Assembly (NCBI GenBank): GCA_963713825.1
Contig: CAVQNG010000026.1
Span: 1 to 24,448 of the forward strand
DNA length: 24,448 nt
From: an uncultured Acidobacteriota bacterium
GTDB taxonomy: Bacteria > Acidobacteriota > Thermoanaerobaculia > Multivoradales > JAHEKO01
Reading direction: 5' to 3'
A program made the position numbers and the translations under genes. The notes below the pieces were generated by a model. That model was not told where the DNA came from and did no database searches. It saw only the letters and a list, made by a program, of their open reading frames with translations. This document shows, one piece after another, positions 19,828-24,448 of the stretch (within the stretch, counting starts at the first letter, position 1; the number at the start of each line of letters is the position of its first letter).

Positions 19828-21195
19828 ATGACACTCGAGAGCCTGAATCCTGTTTCCGGCGAGCGGATCGCCACATACGAAGAGATGACTCCTGACGAGG
19901 TGGGAGAAATTCTCGTCACCTGCCATGAGACCTTTCTCCAGTGGAGCCGTACCGACCTCCAGCACCGAGCGAGGCTTCTGAAGCGGGTCGGTGGTCTTCT
20001 TCGCGAGCGTCGAGACGGACTCGCCGAGCTCATGACGATCGAGATGGGAAAACCCATCACCCAGGCCCGGGCCGAGGTCGACAAGTGCGCCTGGGTCTGT
20101 GACTACTACGCGGAGAATGCCGAGAGTCATCTGTCGTCCGAGATCGTCGAGACGGATGCCACCAAGAGCTACGTCTGCTTCGAGCCTCTCGGCGTGGTGC
20201 TCGCTGTAATGCCCTGGAACTTCCCGTTCTGGCAGGTGCTGCGCTTCGCAGCTCCGGCGCTGATGGCCGGCAACACGGCAGCGCTCAAGCACGCGAGCAA
20301 CGTGCAGGGTTGTGCTCTCGCCATCGAGGACCTCTTCCGGGAGGCTGGAGCTCCCGAAGGCGCCTTTCGCACCCTGGTCCTAGGTAGCCGGGCCGCCAGC
20401 GTCGCCATCGAGCATCCGCGAGTCGCGGCGGTCACTCTCACGGGCAGCACGCCGGCCGGGCGCCAGGTCGCGGCGATGGCTGGATCCCTTCTCAAGAAGA
20501 CCGTCCTGGAGTTGGGAGGTAGCGACCCTTATGTGATTCTCGAGGATGCCGATCTGGAACTTGCAGTGGCAGCCTGTGTGACTGGCCGCATCCTCAATAC
20601 AGGCCAGAGCTGCATCGCCGCCAAGCGCTTCATTGTTCCTGATGCGGTGCGCGGAGAGTTCGAGAAGCGGCTCGTAGAGCTCATGGGGCGTCAGAGTGTT
20701 GGCGACCCCATGCAGGAGGAGACCGAAGTCGGGCCCATGGCCAGGGCCGACCTGCGCGACGAGTTGCACGACCAGGTCGAGCGCAGTCTCCAGGGCGGAG
20801 CACGCTGTCTGCTGGGAGGCGAGGTCCCAGAAGGCCCCGGCGCCTTCTATCCTCCGACCGTGCTCACGGACGTGACGGCGGGAATGGCCGCCTACGAGGA
20901 GGAGCTCTTCGGACCCGTGGCCGCTGTTGTGCCCGTGGCCGATGAAGAGGAGGCCATCCGCGTCGCCAACGACACGCCTTTCGGGTTGGGGGCGGCGGTA
21001 TTCACGCGAGATGTCGCGCGAGGAGAGGAGATTGCAGCGCAGCGACTTCAGGCCGGCTCCTGCTTCGTCAACACCTTCGTGAAGTCGGACCCGCGCTTGC
21101 CTTTCGGCGGCATCAAGGGCTCAGGCTACGGTCGTGAGCTCGGCTCGTTCGGTATCCGCGAGTTCGTCAACATCAAGACGGTCTATGTCGCGTAG
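19828..21195 (+). CDS. NAD(P)-dependent succinate-semialdehyde dehydrogenase (Sad/GabD1-like aldehyde dehydrogenase)
   Basis: [46 protein letters not shown] and [15 protein letters not shown]. Confidence 0.88.
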
Positions 21196-21212
21196 CCCGG
21201 CTGTGCCGGGCT
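21194..21212 (+). terminator. Stem-loop at the SSADH stop codon (possible terminator or stability hairpin)
   Basis: AGCCCGGC-TGT-GCCGGGCT. There is no U-tract, so intrinsic termination is uncertain. Confidence 0.35.
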
Positions 21213-21359
21213 CGCTCGGGGGTTGAACCGTCCGGGCCTTTGAGGGCTTGGGGGTTGAGGCGGCCGGTCGTACCTTCCGGCCGATCTTTGGGGCAATGGG
21301 GCCCCCGACCCTGCTATCTCCGAGTCTTCCCGATGTAGATGTAGATACGGTCTTGAGAA

Positions 21360-22343
21360 TCAAGTTTCCTCATAGTGTGGGTTGAAGGGTTGCTGGTGTA
21401 GGAGTACTCCGTAGACGAGGTGTAGGAGTTTCCTCATGGCGGCGACGAGAGCGCTTTTCTTGGCGAGTCCTTGTTGGAGTTTGCGTTCATAGAAGGTCTT
21501 GAGGATGGGGTTCCATCGCACGCCGACAAGCGCTGCCATATAGAGGGCACGCCGGAGTCGCCAGTTGCCCTGCTTGGAGATGCGGGGTCGTTTCCGCACC
21601 GAGGATCCAGACTCAAACAGGATCGGTTCCAGTCCAGCGTAGCGGGTCAGTTGTTTCGGGTTGGCTTGGAGGAGTTGGGGCCCATACTCGGCCAGTAGGG
21701 TGAGCGCGGTTTTGGGTCCGATGCCTGGGATCGAGAGCAGCAGTCGGTAGGACTGTCGTGTCTGAGGGTCGTGTTGCACGAGGTCGTGAGCCTCTCGCTC
21801 GACTTGGTCGAGCTCGAGCTTCAAGGCGTCGAGCAGGCTCTGGAGCCTGGTGGCGAGCTGAGTCGGTAGCTGGGGATCGGCCAAGGCCTTTTCCTGCCGG
21901 TCACGGGCTCGGTCCAGCAAGCCCTGCAGCTCCAGGTGATGGCGCCATAGGGCCCGCAGGGTCTGGGCGCGCCGGGATTTCGGCGGCTCGAGAGCCGGTG
22001 GAAAGGTTTCGGCAAAGTGCACCAGCAAAGCGGCATCGATGGCGTCGGTCTTGCTGCGTTCGGGCGAGGCTTTGGCAAAGTCGCGTAGCCGCCGGGGATT
22101 GATGCAGGCGTAGGGGATCGAGGGTTCGAGACCGTCGAGCCAGCGGGCCACAGGCAGCCAGTAAGGTCCTGTGGCCTCAAAGACGATGCCGAGCCCTGAG
22201 GTCTTCGGCAGCCACTGCTGAAAAGCCTCAAAGCCTTCCTCCGTCATGGGGAAGCACTGCGTCTCGAAGTCAGTCTGGGATCGTTGCGCGGCGACGAAGT
22301 CCTGTTTTGCGATGTCGATGCCAATCCAGGTGATGGGCTGCAT
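21360..22343 (-). CDS. IS110-family transposase / bridge recombinase
   Basis: DEDD RuvC-like N-domain (GIDIAK, FEATG, SKTDAIDA), coiled-coil linker, and Tnp domain (SIPGIG, YAGLEP, ESGSS catalytic Ser, GNWRLRRALY, MRKLL). RBS GAGGAGG at 22349-22355. Confidence 0.96.
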   Translation of the reverse strand: MQPITWIGIDIAKQDFVAAQRSQTDFETQCFPMTEEGFEAFQQWLPKTSGLGIVFEATGPYWLPVARWLDGLEPSIPYACINPRRLRDFAKASPERSKTDAIDAALLVHFAETFPPALEPPKSRRAQTLRALWRHHLELQGLLDRARDRQEKALADPQLPTQLATRLQSLLDALKLELDQVEREAHDLVQHDPQTRQSYRLLLSIPGIGPKTALTLLAEYGPQLLQANPKQLTRYAGLEPILFESGSSVRKRPRISKQGNWRLRRALYMAALVGVRWNPILKTFYERKLQQGLAKKSALVAAMRKLLHLVYGVLLHQQPFNPHYEET

Positions 22344-22355
22344 GCTTACCTCCTC

Positions 22356-22560
22356 GCAGTTTCAGTAAACTGGGAGGGTCAAGAGGTCGGTGCCTACCTT
22401 GCACATACAGGCTCAGTACGGCCTTCGATACGGTGCGGCATCGGCGGGGGCGCTTATCTACTCGCTCAGGCTCTACGGCCGTCGGGAGGGAGCAGCGTCT
22501 AATCCCCGCTGCCTCTTGACCTTGAGAGCCCTCCGTACCAGAGGGCTCTCTGTTTCTGAG
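22356..22560 (-). ncRNA. Putative IS110 bridge RNA (5' hairpin, target-binding loop, donor-binding loop)
   Basis: 5' hairpin GAGAGCCCTC/GAGGGCTCTC (22524-22550). The target loop is closed by GCGGGG/CCCCGC and holds CCCTCCC (22484-22490) and GTAG (22458-22461). The donor loop is closed by TGCC/GGCA and holds ACCGTATC (22427-22434) and GTGCAAG (22398-22404). RNA ends are estimates. Confidence 0.85.
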
Positions 22561-22566
22561 GAGATA

Positions 22567-22572
22567 AAGATA
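22567..22572 (-). promoter_or_regulatory. -10 box (TATCTT) of the circle-junction promoter, with -35 (TTGATT) at 21358-21363
   Basis: Joining the right end to the left end through one CT core gives TTGATT-ctcaagaccgtatcttg(17 nt)-TATCTT, directed into the ncRNA and recombinase. Confidence 0.75.
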
Positions 22573-22574
22573 CA

Positions 22575-22624
22575 AGGGGAGGGGCTTGCCCCCTCCCGCG
22601 GGAGCCCGCAAGGGGCTCCCCTAC
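22575..22624. repeat. GTAG-type REP doublet (REPIN/BIME-like) interrupted by the IS110
   Basis: The pre-insertion plus strand reads GTAG-GGGAGGGG-CTTGC-CCCCTCCC-gc-GGGAGCCC-GCAAG-GGGCTCCC-CTAC. These are two inverted palindromic units, each led by GTAG, and the first GT now lies at 21341-21342. Confidence 0.75.
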
Positions 22625-22627
22625 AAG

Positions 22628-22666
22628 GCCGACGCCGTCCCCCTGCGAACCACCCGGATGGACCTC
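22628..22666 (-). repeat. 39-bp dispersed repeat, copy 2
   Basis: GCCGACGCCGTCCCCCTGCGAACCACCCGGATGGACCTC, 36/39 identical to the reverse complement of 16771-16809. Confidence 0.85.
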
Positions 22667-22808
22667 CGGCTTACAACCTCGTTGGAGAGCAGGACGATCG
22701 GCCAGGAGAGGCGCCACCCGACTGAACCCCTACCCCCTTAGACCCCTACTGCCCTATGCCCCTGTTACCCAGGACCCAAGCCCCAAGCCGGATGGGAGGG
22801 CGGGCAGA

Positions 22809-24448
22809 TCAGGGAGAGGGAGTCGCGGCCTCGACAAGGGGCCGGCCATCGACTTCATCCGGAATCGGGATGCCCATCAGGTGCGCGAGCGTCGGTGCCA
22901 GGTCGACCGTCCTGGCGGGAACCTCCAGCGTCTCGGGTTTCAGGCCCGGAGCCAGAACAACGAAAGGAACGTGGGTGTCGTACTCGTACGGCGACCCATG
23001 GGTGGTGACATTGCCCACCGACGGCATGAAGTACTCCTCGAACTGGATCAGGAAGTCGGCGCTGCGCTCTGGGTAATAGCTGTTCGCAAACAGCCACCGG
23101 AAGTGCTCATTCTCGTCGACCTCTTGCTGCAGATCCGAGCTGGTCCAGACCGCCTCGACCGCGGGACATTGCTCGAGTAGACCAGCGGTTTCCTCCTCCA
23201 GTTCGACCCGTGGTCGACCTGTCAGCTCGATCAGGTCCGGGACCAACCTTGGCCCTGGCACCAGCCAGCTGTCCACTCCGTACTTCTTTGCCAGTTGCGC
23301 TCCGACCTGCTGCAGACAGACCACCGTTTCCGAGTCCACCCGCCGGCCTGTCAGACCCTGGTCGTGGCGTACCTCGGGCACCGGGACCACGCCATGATCG
23401 GCGCTGAATCCAACGACCATATTCTCGAGTCCCACTCTCTCGTCGAGGTAGTCGAGAAGCGAGCCCACCGTACGATCCAGGCGCAGTAGGGTATCGATGT
23501 ACTCCCTGCTGTTCGGCCCATGATCGTGCCCCACATAGTCCGGCGCCGAGAAGCTCAGAGCCAAAAGGTCCGGGCTGCCATCGGACCCCAGGTCCTCGGC
23601 TTCGATGAGCACGCGGGCGAACTGAGCCAGGTACGCATCCCACCACGGGGAGTCGCGAATCGCAGAGTAGAAGCTCTCATCGGGAGCGGGTCGTGGTGGG
23701 CCGAAGGTGATGGGTAGCTCTTTATGGAATGGTCCGAAGTCGAGCTCCTCCAATTGAAGCTCCTCGATGGACTCGGGTGCCAACGGAAGGGGCTCCCACA
23801 CCTCGCCGAATCTCACGTCGAGGAGTTTCCTGTCGTCAAAATCCCGGAGCCATTCCGGCTCGACGTAATACTCCGAGGTTTCATATCCGCCAATTTCATC
23901 GTCGAACCAGTACGCGCCATCGGCTCCCTTTCCGCCCATCAGAATGGCTGCCCGATCCTTGCCGCTGGCTGCGAAGACCTTGGCTTCCGGGTAGGTAGCC
24001 TTGATCCACTCTCCGAGGGTCGTTCGCTCGAGCTCCTGGGGCGACTCGTCGTAGACATCGTCATCGATGGCCCACCGGCTCTCCACGCTGCCTTCTTCGA
24101 TCCACCAATTGCTGACGATGCCGTGGTGGCGAGGAAAGCAGCCGGTGGCGAGGGTGGCATGCCCAGGAGCGGTCTCGGTGAGAGCGTGGGCGTGATGCGC
24201 CTGTGTAAAGCTCACCCCTCGATCCAGAAGGGTGCGAAAACCGCCGGTGAAGAGCGGAGAAACTCGCTCCAGGTCATCGGCGCTGAATTGATCCACCACC
24301 AGGAGGAGGACGAGCCGTGGCGTGCCCTCTGGTGGCGTCTTGCCGCTGGGTGCCTGGTCTGCTTTCTCGACGGCTCCCGGCTGACAGGCAGACATCGCCA
24401 GGCTGGCAGCTAGTGCCAGCCCAGCGAAGAATCGCCAAGATATGAATC
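22809..24448 (-). CDS. Alkaline phosphatase superfamily protein (PafA/PhoK-like), probable lipoprotein, 5' end beyond the right edge
   Basis: VVDQF, TETAPGHATLATG (Thr nucleophile), SGKDR, PDYVGH, SADHG and THGSPY. The frame stays open upstream of ATG 24395 as FISWRFFAGLALAASLAMSA-C, a signal peptide with a lipobox. Confidence 0.88.
   Translation of the reverse strand, partial: FISWRFFAGLALAASLAMSACQPGAVEKADQAPSGKTPPEGTPRLVLLLVVDQFSADDLERVSPLFTGGFRTLLDRGVSFTQAHHAHALTETAPGHATLATGCFPRHHGIVSNWWIEEGSVESRWAIDDDVYDESPQELERTTLGEWIKATYPEAKVFAASGKDRAAILMGGKGADGAYWFDDEIGGYETSEYYVEPEWLRDFDDRKLLDVRFGEVWEPLPLAPESIEELQLEELDFGPFHKELPITFGPPRPAPDESFYSAIRDSPWWDAYLAQFARVLIEAEDLGSDGSPDLLALSFSAPDYVGHDHGPNSREYIDTLLRLDRTVGSLLDYLDERVGLENMVVGFSADHGVVPVPEVRHDQGLTGRRVDSETVVCLQQVGAQLAKKYGVDSWLVPGPRLVPDLIELTGRPRVELEEETAGLLEQCPAVEAVWTSSDLQQEVDENEHFRWLFANSYYPERSADFLIQFEEYFMPSVGNVTTHGSPYEYDTHVPFVVLAPGLKPETLEVPARTVDLAPTLAHLMGIPIPDEVDGRPLVEAATPSP

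Follow-up and report, generated by a model that had tools for sequence, protein, structure and literature searches.

IS110-group insertion sequences carry RNA-guided recombinases, and the system closest to the one reported here is IS621 of Escherichia coli (PMC11208160, PMC11208158, PDB 8wt6). The mechanism and life cycle of the class are already described (PMC11208160, PMC11208158, PMC13626964), and PMC11208160 reports bridge RNAs predicted by covariance models in 85.7% of the IS110-group elements in ISfinder, together with covariation demonstrated on 5,511 RNA–target pairs. Here we analyse 24,448 nucleotides (nt) of DNA from an uncultured Acidobacteriota bacterium of the Thermoanaerobaculia type (assembly GCA_963713825.1, contig CAVQNG010000026.1; the whole stretch is referred to as the window), of which positions 21345-22576 form a single compact IS110-group element on the minus strand (Table 1). 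With a probability of about 0.9, we consider it an intact and probably still mobile insertion sequence that works like IS621. A first reading made from the bare sequence, hereafter the original prediction, had proposed a complete bridge-recombination system of an already described class, and both parts of that proposal proved sound: Pfam, NCBIfam and a match to IS621 identify the recombinase, and covariation among homologs supports the four-guide RNA architecture of the IS621 type.

The likeness to IS621, as far as the two papers and the structure entry describe it, runs through the whole element. The recombinases share two domains and five catalytic residues, and both elements have a long left end, a short right end and a CT core. 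Both RNAs combine a 5' hairpin with a target arm and a donor arm, in whose loops the 5' strand is identical to the top strand of the DNA and the 3' strand is complementary to the core and the right half-site, each loop strand having a bulged A and a leading G. The left donor guide (LDG) is 8 nt long and the right donor guide (RDG) is split into AU and CAAG; a handshake AU follows the right target guide (RTG), and G is the first handshake base after the RDG. The donors are one letter apart (ACCGTAT-CT-TGTAT here, ACAGTATCTTGTAT in the IS621 oligonucleotide given in PMC13396178), both elements are inserted in repeats of the repetitive extragenic palindromic (REP) type, and the promoter split across the circle junction has a putative counterpart here. 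The differences are that the window recombinase is distant from that of IS621 and not a close ortholog, that the target is CCCTCCC-CT-AC with a left target guide (LTG) that does not cover the core (GA, not CU), that the two arms lie 1 nt apart, whereas a flexible linker of about 11 nt separates them in IS621 (target-binding loop 34-98, donor-binding loop 110-177), that a closing helix of 10 bp, itself covarying, surrounds both arms, and that the host is an Acidobacteriota bacterium.

The recombinase of ISCro4 belongs to the same family and matches as strongly as that of IS621, again without being a close relative. We take ISCro4 and IS622 to be the same element. IS622 is presented as an engineered system in its preprint (10.1101/2025.05.14.653916). 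The IS1111 group and its seekRNA share the recombinase family and the RNA-guided mechanism (as outlined in PMC11208160), but in IS1111 elements it is the right end that is long and encodes the RNA, and subterminal inverted repeats (7-17 bp) are present, whereas the right end here is 15 nt long and the RNA model match lies in the 231-nt left end.

The element is an ordinary further example of the well-described IS110/IS621 class, and it opens no new question because class, mechanism and life cycle are already known; its 14-letter donor was not found in the literature searched, supplementary ortholog tables lying outside that scope. It does provide one cleanly readable natural system, from an Acidobacteriota lineage, in which recombinase, RNA, donor, target, handshake letters and split promoter can be assigned from the sequence. 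Its relatives form a small family whose guides have drifted to at least 8 targets on an unchanged scaffold, and therefore a useful natural reprogramming series for bridge-recombinase engineering. Two variations deserve note, namely the closing helix with almost no linker between the arms and the LTG that leaves the core unpaired.

Element boundaries and insertion site

The 46 nt adjoining the left side of the element belong to a REP-like repeat; the query has 38 matches in the genome, all of which, except the self-match, stay within that stretch. Uninterrupted copies of this flanking repeat in the same genome read ...GCAAGCCCCTCCC-CT-ACAT...; seven of them have ...CCCCTCCCCT-ACAT (that is, ...GGCAAGCCCCTCCC-CT-ACAT...) and the eighth (L009) ...CCCCTCCCCT-TCAT. 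Genome-wide, 32 free CCCTCCCCTAC sites are present against about 6 expected from composition, and 18 of the 32 continue with AT, against 0.23 expected. These uninterrupted copies and free sites therefore define the element as CT-TGTAT...ACCGTAT, followed by CT-ACAT, with the core dinucleotide CT at both junctions of the element and once in the free sites. The span of 21343-22576 in the original prediction agrees to the letter, corresponding to 22576-21345 plus the second core at 21344-21343, and its donor and target (ACCGTAT-CT-TGTAT and CCCTCCC-CT-AC) are recovered both from these empty sites and from guide/flank covariation in homologs.

Three genomes of the same genus (G003, G004 and G005) have the two neighbouring genes adjacent and lack the element; G006, an unpublished record, contributes to none of the results. 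They were rejected as letter-perfect empty sites, their repeats differing in number and orientation, and because of this the same-genome repeat copies serve as empty sites; these give the boundaries that the original prediction, which had named empty sites as a check, required.

In the REP-like repeat, the second hairpin (8 bp, GC-rich) has the left target CCCTCCC (22583-22577) as its 3' arm, and its last base directly precedes the core. A hairpin of differing stem sequence occupies the same place in 6 of 8 lineages. ISPpu10 of Pseudomonas putida likewise has its target beside the GC-rich stem-loop of a repeated intergenic sequence, according to its preprint (10.64898/2026.03.19.712850), the comparison being one of target sites.

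The repeat itself (window 22577-22667, with further copies at loci L004-L012) consists of two GC-rich hairpins, GGGAGCCC..GGGCTCCC and GGGAGGGG..CCCCTCCC, between TGTAG and CTACA. It occurs in dozens of copies per genome in 5/5 genomes of the genus, and at the orthologous locus of G004 the hairpin pair is inverted relative to the neighbouring genes. At the right junction, CTACAT (core plus right target) stands twice in tandem (window 21333-21344, minus strand; second copy 21338-21333), and free sites with a single CTACAT, CCCCTCCCCTACATCGG, are found elsewhere in the genome (C4:299806, C5:204751). The doubling may reflect slippage or the trace of an earlier event.

Target guides follow the flanks

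The flanks, ends and four loop strands were tabulated for 15 loci (coordinates below refer to the minus strand). The four guide strings quoted in the original prediction are all present where it had placed them (22434-22427, 22404-22398, 22490-22484 and a GUAG), and the test of guide–target covariation among homologs that it had proposed came out in its favour, the target guides following the flanks in 8 lineages. The LTG is CCCUCCC beside the flank CCCTCCC in the window, L102 and L103, CCCGCCC beside CCCGCCC in L021, UGUGCGCCC beside TGTGCGCCC in L023, L104 and L106, UCGGCCG beside TCGGCCG in L108 and L109, and GGUUGCCC beside GGTCGCCC, with one G-U, in L025-27; it reads CGGCCG in L022 and CGCCCC in L105. 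The longest identical run between LTG and flank averages 6.8 for a locus's own pair (12 loci) and 3.9 over 122 pairs whose flanks differ. When each of the 8 lineages is represented by a single locus, the own-pair sum for the LTG is reached by 1 of 40320 permutations, the true assignment alone, and that for the RTG by 2 of 40320, although these figures overstate independence, as the lineages are related. A 7-mer match in a 12-nt loop strand and an 8-mer match in another would each be expected fewer than 1e-3 times by chance.

The RTG changes with the right flank in the same manner: GUAG for CT-AC, GUGUAG for CT-ACAC, CGUAG for CT-ACG, GAAG, UUGAAG or GGGAAG for CT-TC.., and GAGGAG (GGAG) for CT-CCTC. 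The target arm of the window holds GUAG twice, at 22476-22473 and 22461-22458. The original prediction, which rightly saw a GUAG complementary to CT-AC, left the occurrence unspecified; the RTG is the one at 22461-22458, on the 3' strand of the loop, because this strand changes with the right flank across lineages. The copy at 22476-22473 was rejected for this role, as it lies in the distal hairpin loop, where CGUAGA, CAUAGA or CAUCGA stands independently of the flank.

In 8/12 loci, the window included, GA and not CU comes after the LTG, which therefore leaves the core unpaired. The core is thus included in three of the guides (RTG and RDG, both ending ..AG, and LDG, through the first core base) and not in the LTG. 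IS621 strongly prefers core pairing on both strands, and 'CT core guides' were chosen as a subset, in the analyses reported in PMC11208160; inclusion of the core in all four guides is a rule of IS621 and no defining rule of the family.

Donor guides and handshake guides

The LDG, ACCGTATC, equals the right end ACCGTAT plus the first core base C (21344), and it changes to ACAGUAUC where the right end is ACAGTAT (L108, L109). On the other side of the donor loop, CAAG pairs with CT-TG and becomes CUAG in L024 and L105, where the left end is CTAGTAT. An invariant AU three letters upstream of CAAG is able to base-pair with donor positions 13-14 (A and T), and the three letters between them vary freely (GUG, GAG, CGA, UUG, GUA). 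The contiguous GUGCAAG (22404-22398) of the original prediction is indeed complementary to CTTGTAT (22576-22570) with two G-T wobbles, but as an RDG it fails in L021 and L103, which have GAGCAAG with the same donor, and the split reading (AU plus CAAG) is better, fitting 12/12 loci. A discontiguous RDG, A157-U158 and C162-G165, is described for IS621 in PMC11208158.

The handshake guides can be read in the same strands. The AU after the RTG can pair with the last AT of ACCGTAT; its IS621 counterpart is A81/U82 (as numbered in PMC11208158). The first letter after CAAG or CUAG pairs with the last letter of the left target (position 7) in 11/12 loci, being C instead of G in L022, L108 and L109, whose target has G as its last letter. 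Such tracking of the target by a donor-loop base is, judging from these sequences, hard to explain except by a handshake mechanism.

Structure of the predicted bridge RNA

The 233-nt leader before the start codon has a minimum free energy (MFE) of -102.1 kcal/mol (z = -5.06), with 0 of 200 shuffles as stable. Left ends of 11 homologous loci, with recombinases 49-90% identical, were aligned with the window using MAFFT. RNAalifold, run on the full left end, paired the first left-end letters with the RDG and reported the complementarity between CAAG and the left end as a 'pair' with 2 double changes; this pairing is complementarity between guide and donor, not an RNA helix. A hand-drawn structure was used for this reason, comprising the closing helix and a target arm and donor arm built alike, and on the MAFFT alignment 88.8% of its cells are paired. 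A covariance model made from this alignment and structure was used to align 14 sequences, and model R1 gave a match of 159.4 bits at the predicted bridge RNA of the window. Over these 14 homologs, the 35 pairs are 91.2% paired, against 33-48% when partners are slid by 1-3 columns, and compensatory changes occur in 13/35 pairs, a number reached by 0/500 shuffles. The leader thus folds, as the original prediction had it, into a 5' hairpin and two internal-loop stems. Compensatory changes occur in 7/10 pairs of the closing helix (in the 14 sequences); in the target arm, helix 2 has them in 4/8 pairs and helix 3 is invariant, and in the donor arm they affect a single pair of the basal stem (A-U for G-C, in L025), the distal stem being invariant. 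Jukes–Cantor divergence of the RNA core from four close relatives is 0.047-0.082, against a synonymous divergence (dS) of 0.20-0.63 in the adjacent gene, so the non-coding left end is under selection. A search of positions 21000-23000 with Rfam returned no family at gathering score (best Corio-PBP, 24.4 vs 63.5 bits, on the plus strand in the flanking repeat), a null that is no evidence either way on the bridge RNA.

The same leader might instead be read as a cis-regulatory 5' untranslated region only, acting on translation or stability, with the flank matches as by-products of the insertion-site sequence. The MFE fold pairs the leader's AUCUCCUC with the ribosome-binding site GAGGAGG, and a single transcript from the junction promoter probably spans both RNA and gene, as such a region would have it. 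However, in 8 lineages the stems are kept as the loop letters vary along with the flanks, the donor-loop handshake base tracks the target in a way that a regulatory leader does not predict, each piece of the layout has its match in the solved IS621 RNA, and the pairing with the ribosome-binding site is confined to the nearest relatives; we regard this explanation as very improbable and retain a guide function for the left end. As for the pairing itself (..UUUAUCUCCUC with GAGGAGGUAAG; window 22556-22567 with 22345-22355, minus strand), the fold model suggests that it could mask translation on a long transcript.

A single A stands between the arms in each of the 16 close loci, whereas the 7 more distant loci for which the model aligned both arms have 11-15-nt linkers. 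The 177-nt IS621 RNA cannot form the closing helix because it ends with the donor arm, and a synaptic complex of IS621 takes its two loops from separate RNA molecules. In the clade examined here (recombinases at least 49% identical to that of the window), the bridge RNA may conceivably be a closed three-way junction, possibly with a different stoichiometry or geometry, an idea that we hold only tentatively and think unlikely. If true, one RNA may supply both loops, should the arms stack end to end, and this, combined with a target at a hairpin foot, would set the system apart in structure from other bridge systems and possibly make it more self-contained. A broader claim, that the closing helix is general across a 58-row alignment of distant model matches, was dropped, as many of those matches align one arm only (target arm 2-14 nt) and the high pairing is partly a fitting artefact.

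Table 1 Features of the IS110-group element in the window
Feature	Position	Strand	Basis or remark
Entire IS110-group element: left core CT, left end of 231 nt, recombinase gene and right end of 15 nt	21345..22576	-	Uninterrupted repeat copies and homolog ends
Left end	22574-22344	-	231 nt, non-coding
Right end	21359-21345	-	15 nt
Left donor half-site ACCGTAT (element's right end)	21345..21351	-	Right-end comparison and sequence
Right donor half-site TGTAT (element's left end)	22570..22574	-	Left-end comparison and sequence
Right junction: second core CT (21344-21343) and right target ACAT	21339..21344	-	Sequence; free sites are CCCCTCCCCTACAT
REP-like repeat containing the insertion site	22577..22667	-	38 query matches; hairpin prediction
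LTG CCCUCCC	22484..22490	-	Identical to flank 22583-22577; permutation 1/40320
RTG GUAG (22461-22458), complementary to CT-AC, then handshake guide AU (22457-22456)	22456..22461	-	Follows right flank in 8 lineages
LDG ACCGUAUC	22427..22434	-	Identical to right end plus first core base
RDG: AU (22406-22405), 3-nt variable bulge, CAAG (22401-22398), then handshake GU (22397-22396)	22396..22406	-	Homolog comparison
Predicted bridge RNA	22377..22560	-	5' end placed from the -10 box; 3' end at least to the end of the closing helix
5' hairpin	22524..22550	-	9 pairs, of which 3 are compensatory
Closing helix, 5' strand GGUCAAGAGG	22512..22521	-	Pairs with 22386-22377
Closing helix, 3' strand CCUCUUGACC	22377..22386	-	Fold and homolog alignment
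Target-binding arm (two basal stems, internal loop, distal stem-loop)	22442..22511	-	Homolog alignment
Distal stem-loop of target arm, with non-guide GUAG 22476-22473	22468..22481	-	Loop letters independent of flank
Donor-binding arm	22391..22440	-	Homolog alignment
Recombinase gene (327 amino acids; RuvC-like DEDD domain and Tnp domain with catalytic Ser)	21360..22343	-	Open reading frame, Pfam, NCBIfam, match to IS621 structure sequence
Ribosome-binding site GAGGAGG	22349..22355	-	Sequence
Candidate -10 box TATCTT, left end	22567..22572	-	17 nt from the -35 box once ends are joined
Candidate -35 box TTGATT, right end, overlapping the stop codon	21358..21363	-	TTGAnn conserved in homologs

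Recombinase

The recombinase scores 67.8 bits against PF01548 (N-terminal RuvC-like DEDD domain; cut-off 29), 88.8 bits against PF02371 (C-terminal Tnp domain; cut-off 21.3) and 201 bits against NCBIfam NF033542, 'IS110 family RNA-guided transposase' (curated cut-off 140). Compared by sequence alone, its residues 4-321 match residues 7-319 of the IS621 recombinase chain 8wt6_A, practically the whole length, with E=1.7e-41 (145.8 bits), and the ISCro4 chain 9t56_A (PDB 9t56) follows with E=1.1e-40. D10, E56, D100, D103 and S245-G246 align with 8wt6_A residues 13, 62, 104, 107 and 243-244, which, with a 2-residue offset, are D11, E60, D102, D105 and S241-G242 of IS621; PMC11208158 gives D11, E60, D102, D105 and S241 as the active site. 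D10, E56, D100, D103 and S245 are invariant across 20 aligned homologs down to 39% identity, and the ratio of non-synonymous to synonymous divergence (dN/dS) against four relatives of the same length is 0.08-0.13. A DEDD domain with four acidic residues, a Tnp domain with Ser, the NF033542 score and the long left and short right ends together place the element in the IS110 group.

Proposed life cycle and junction promoter

On the model of IS621, the element would leave the chromosome as a circle, joining the right end (-35 TTGATT) and the left end (-10 TATCTT) across the CT core into a putative sigma-70-type promoter. This junction promoter would give rise first to a bridge RNA of about 185 nt, encoded in the left end, and then to the recombinase mRNA. 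The RNA, with its 5' hairpin, two arms with internal loops and a two-letter handshake guide after each 3' guide, is expected to be held by a DEDD/Ser recombinase tetramer that exchanges strands at the CT core, and the circle would thereby be inserted at CCCTCCC-CT-AC, at the 3' foot of the GC-rich hairpin in the REP-like repeat. Promoter, RNA ends, circle and catalysis are all modelled here on IS621, while the integrity of the gene, the structure of the RNA, the guide/flank covariation and the boundaries are shown by the comparisons above.

In 15/16 right ends, TTGAnn is found at a distance of 12-14 nt from the core, the exception being L104 with TTGTTT, and in joined ends the spacer from TTGAnn to TATnnT is 16-18 nt (17 in 9/11). 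A promoter split across the circle junction is described for IS110 circles in PMC11208160.

Among RNA assemblies, library X3 yielded one 168-letter contig that matches 22393-22528 at 100% identity; the loose letters flanking the match on either side are taken to be Illumina adapter. This contig would represent a short insert over most of the two arms, and gives a weak hint of bridge-RNA expression; it is a hint only because contigs give no strand and the library may hold carried-over DNA. Contigs from the RNA runs X1, X2 and X4 are only 88-99% alike, come from relatives and show no ends, and gaps in their cover carry no meaning. One X2 contig joining 21262 to 22575 was ignored, having only 25 letters on one side, within repeats.

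Copies and mobility

Several observations weigh against an intact and mobile IS621-like element. Genome G000 (38 contigs, 96% complete) holds one full copy despite the 32 free perfect sites, neither blastn nor tblastn finding another in G000, and the only other traces are two truncated left ends. The predicted 14-mer of the circle junction has 0 occurrences in the assembly, a result uninformative on rare circles, and the X3 contig is possibly carried-over DNA. The right flank departs from the usual repeat in addition to carrying the doubled CTACAT. Among the guides, GA stands for CU after the LTG, the LTG of L024 must be shifted by 1 nt to match its flank and even then has one mismatch, a G-U pair is required in L025, and L022 combines the LDG ACUGUAU with the right end ACAGTAT; the relatedness of the lineages, mentioned above, belongs here as well.

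Some of these observations could mean that the window element is a resident relic, no longer mobile, whose gene and RNA look intact while the copy is inactive or nearly so. The single full copy among so many free perfect sites, the decay of sister copies seen in the two truncated left ends and the GA after the LTG, given the preference of IS621 for core pairing, would all suit a relic, as would an LDG that matches 8 nt where relatives match 9 (GCACCG vs GGACCG) and a C-U as the first pair of the distal target stem. Low copy number is, however, usual for IS110 elements. The dN/dS values and the retention of all catalytic residues argue against a relic, as does an RNA core that evolves 4-10 times slower than synonymous sites. 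A 97%-identical recombinase gene (L101) and relatives with 89-92% protein identity are present at other sites in other samples, L102, L103 and L029 each occupying a further copy of the REP-like repeat, where the right flank differs. GA after the LTG is the commonest state in the clade, shared by other members with independent insertions, and is therefore no private defect of the window copy. On balance, loss of mobility appears unlikely, and an intact, probably mobile element remains the preferred reading.

The two solo left-end fragments of the element in G000 are 92% identical, and each lies in a copy of the REP-like repeat at ...CCCCTCCC-CT, with no recombinase gene after it. The fragment L002 (C3:471722-471865, 143 nt) retains everything from the 5' hairpin through the complete target arm, its break point lying immediately ahead of the LDG, and L003 (C3:966902-966804, 99 nt) breaks in the distal stem of the target arm. 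Truncation by recombination at guide-coding DNA acting as a half-site mimic was considered and rejected, the break points not being at those motifs.

One metagenome-assembled genome of an Acidobacteriota bacterium holds three identical copies of a 49%-identical relative (L025, L026 and L027) at three sites sharing GGGTCGCCC-CT-ACG. This is evidently a multi-copy active sister element, whose guides need the one G-U pair.

Neighbouring genes and a second repeat

Two open reading frames, 19828-21195 (plus strand, 455 amino acids) and 22809-24395 (minus strand, 528 amino acids), converge on the intergenic region that holds the element, and no gene is interrupted by it. By eye only, the 455-amino-acid product is an aldehyde dehydrogenase and the 528-amino-acid product a phosphatase-like protein. 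A second, different short repeat lies at about 21235-21306, between the aldehyde dehydrogenase gene and the element, and has 23-63 matches per genome in the 5 genomes of the same genus.

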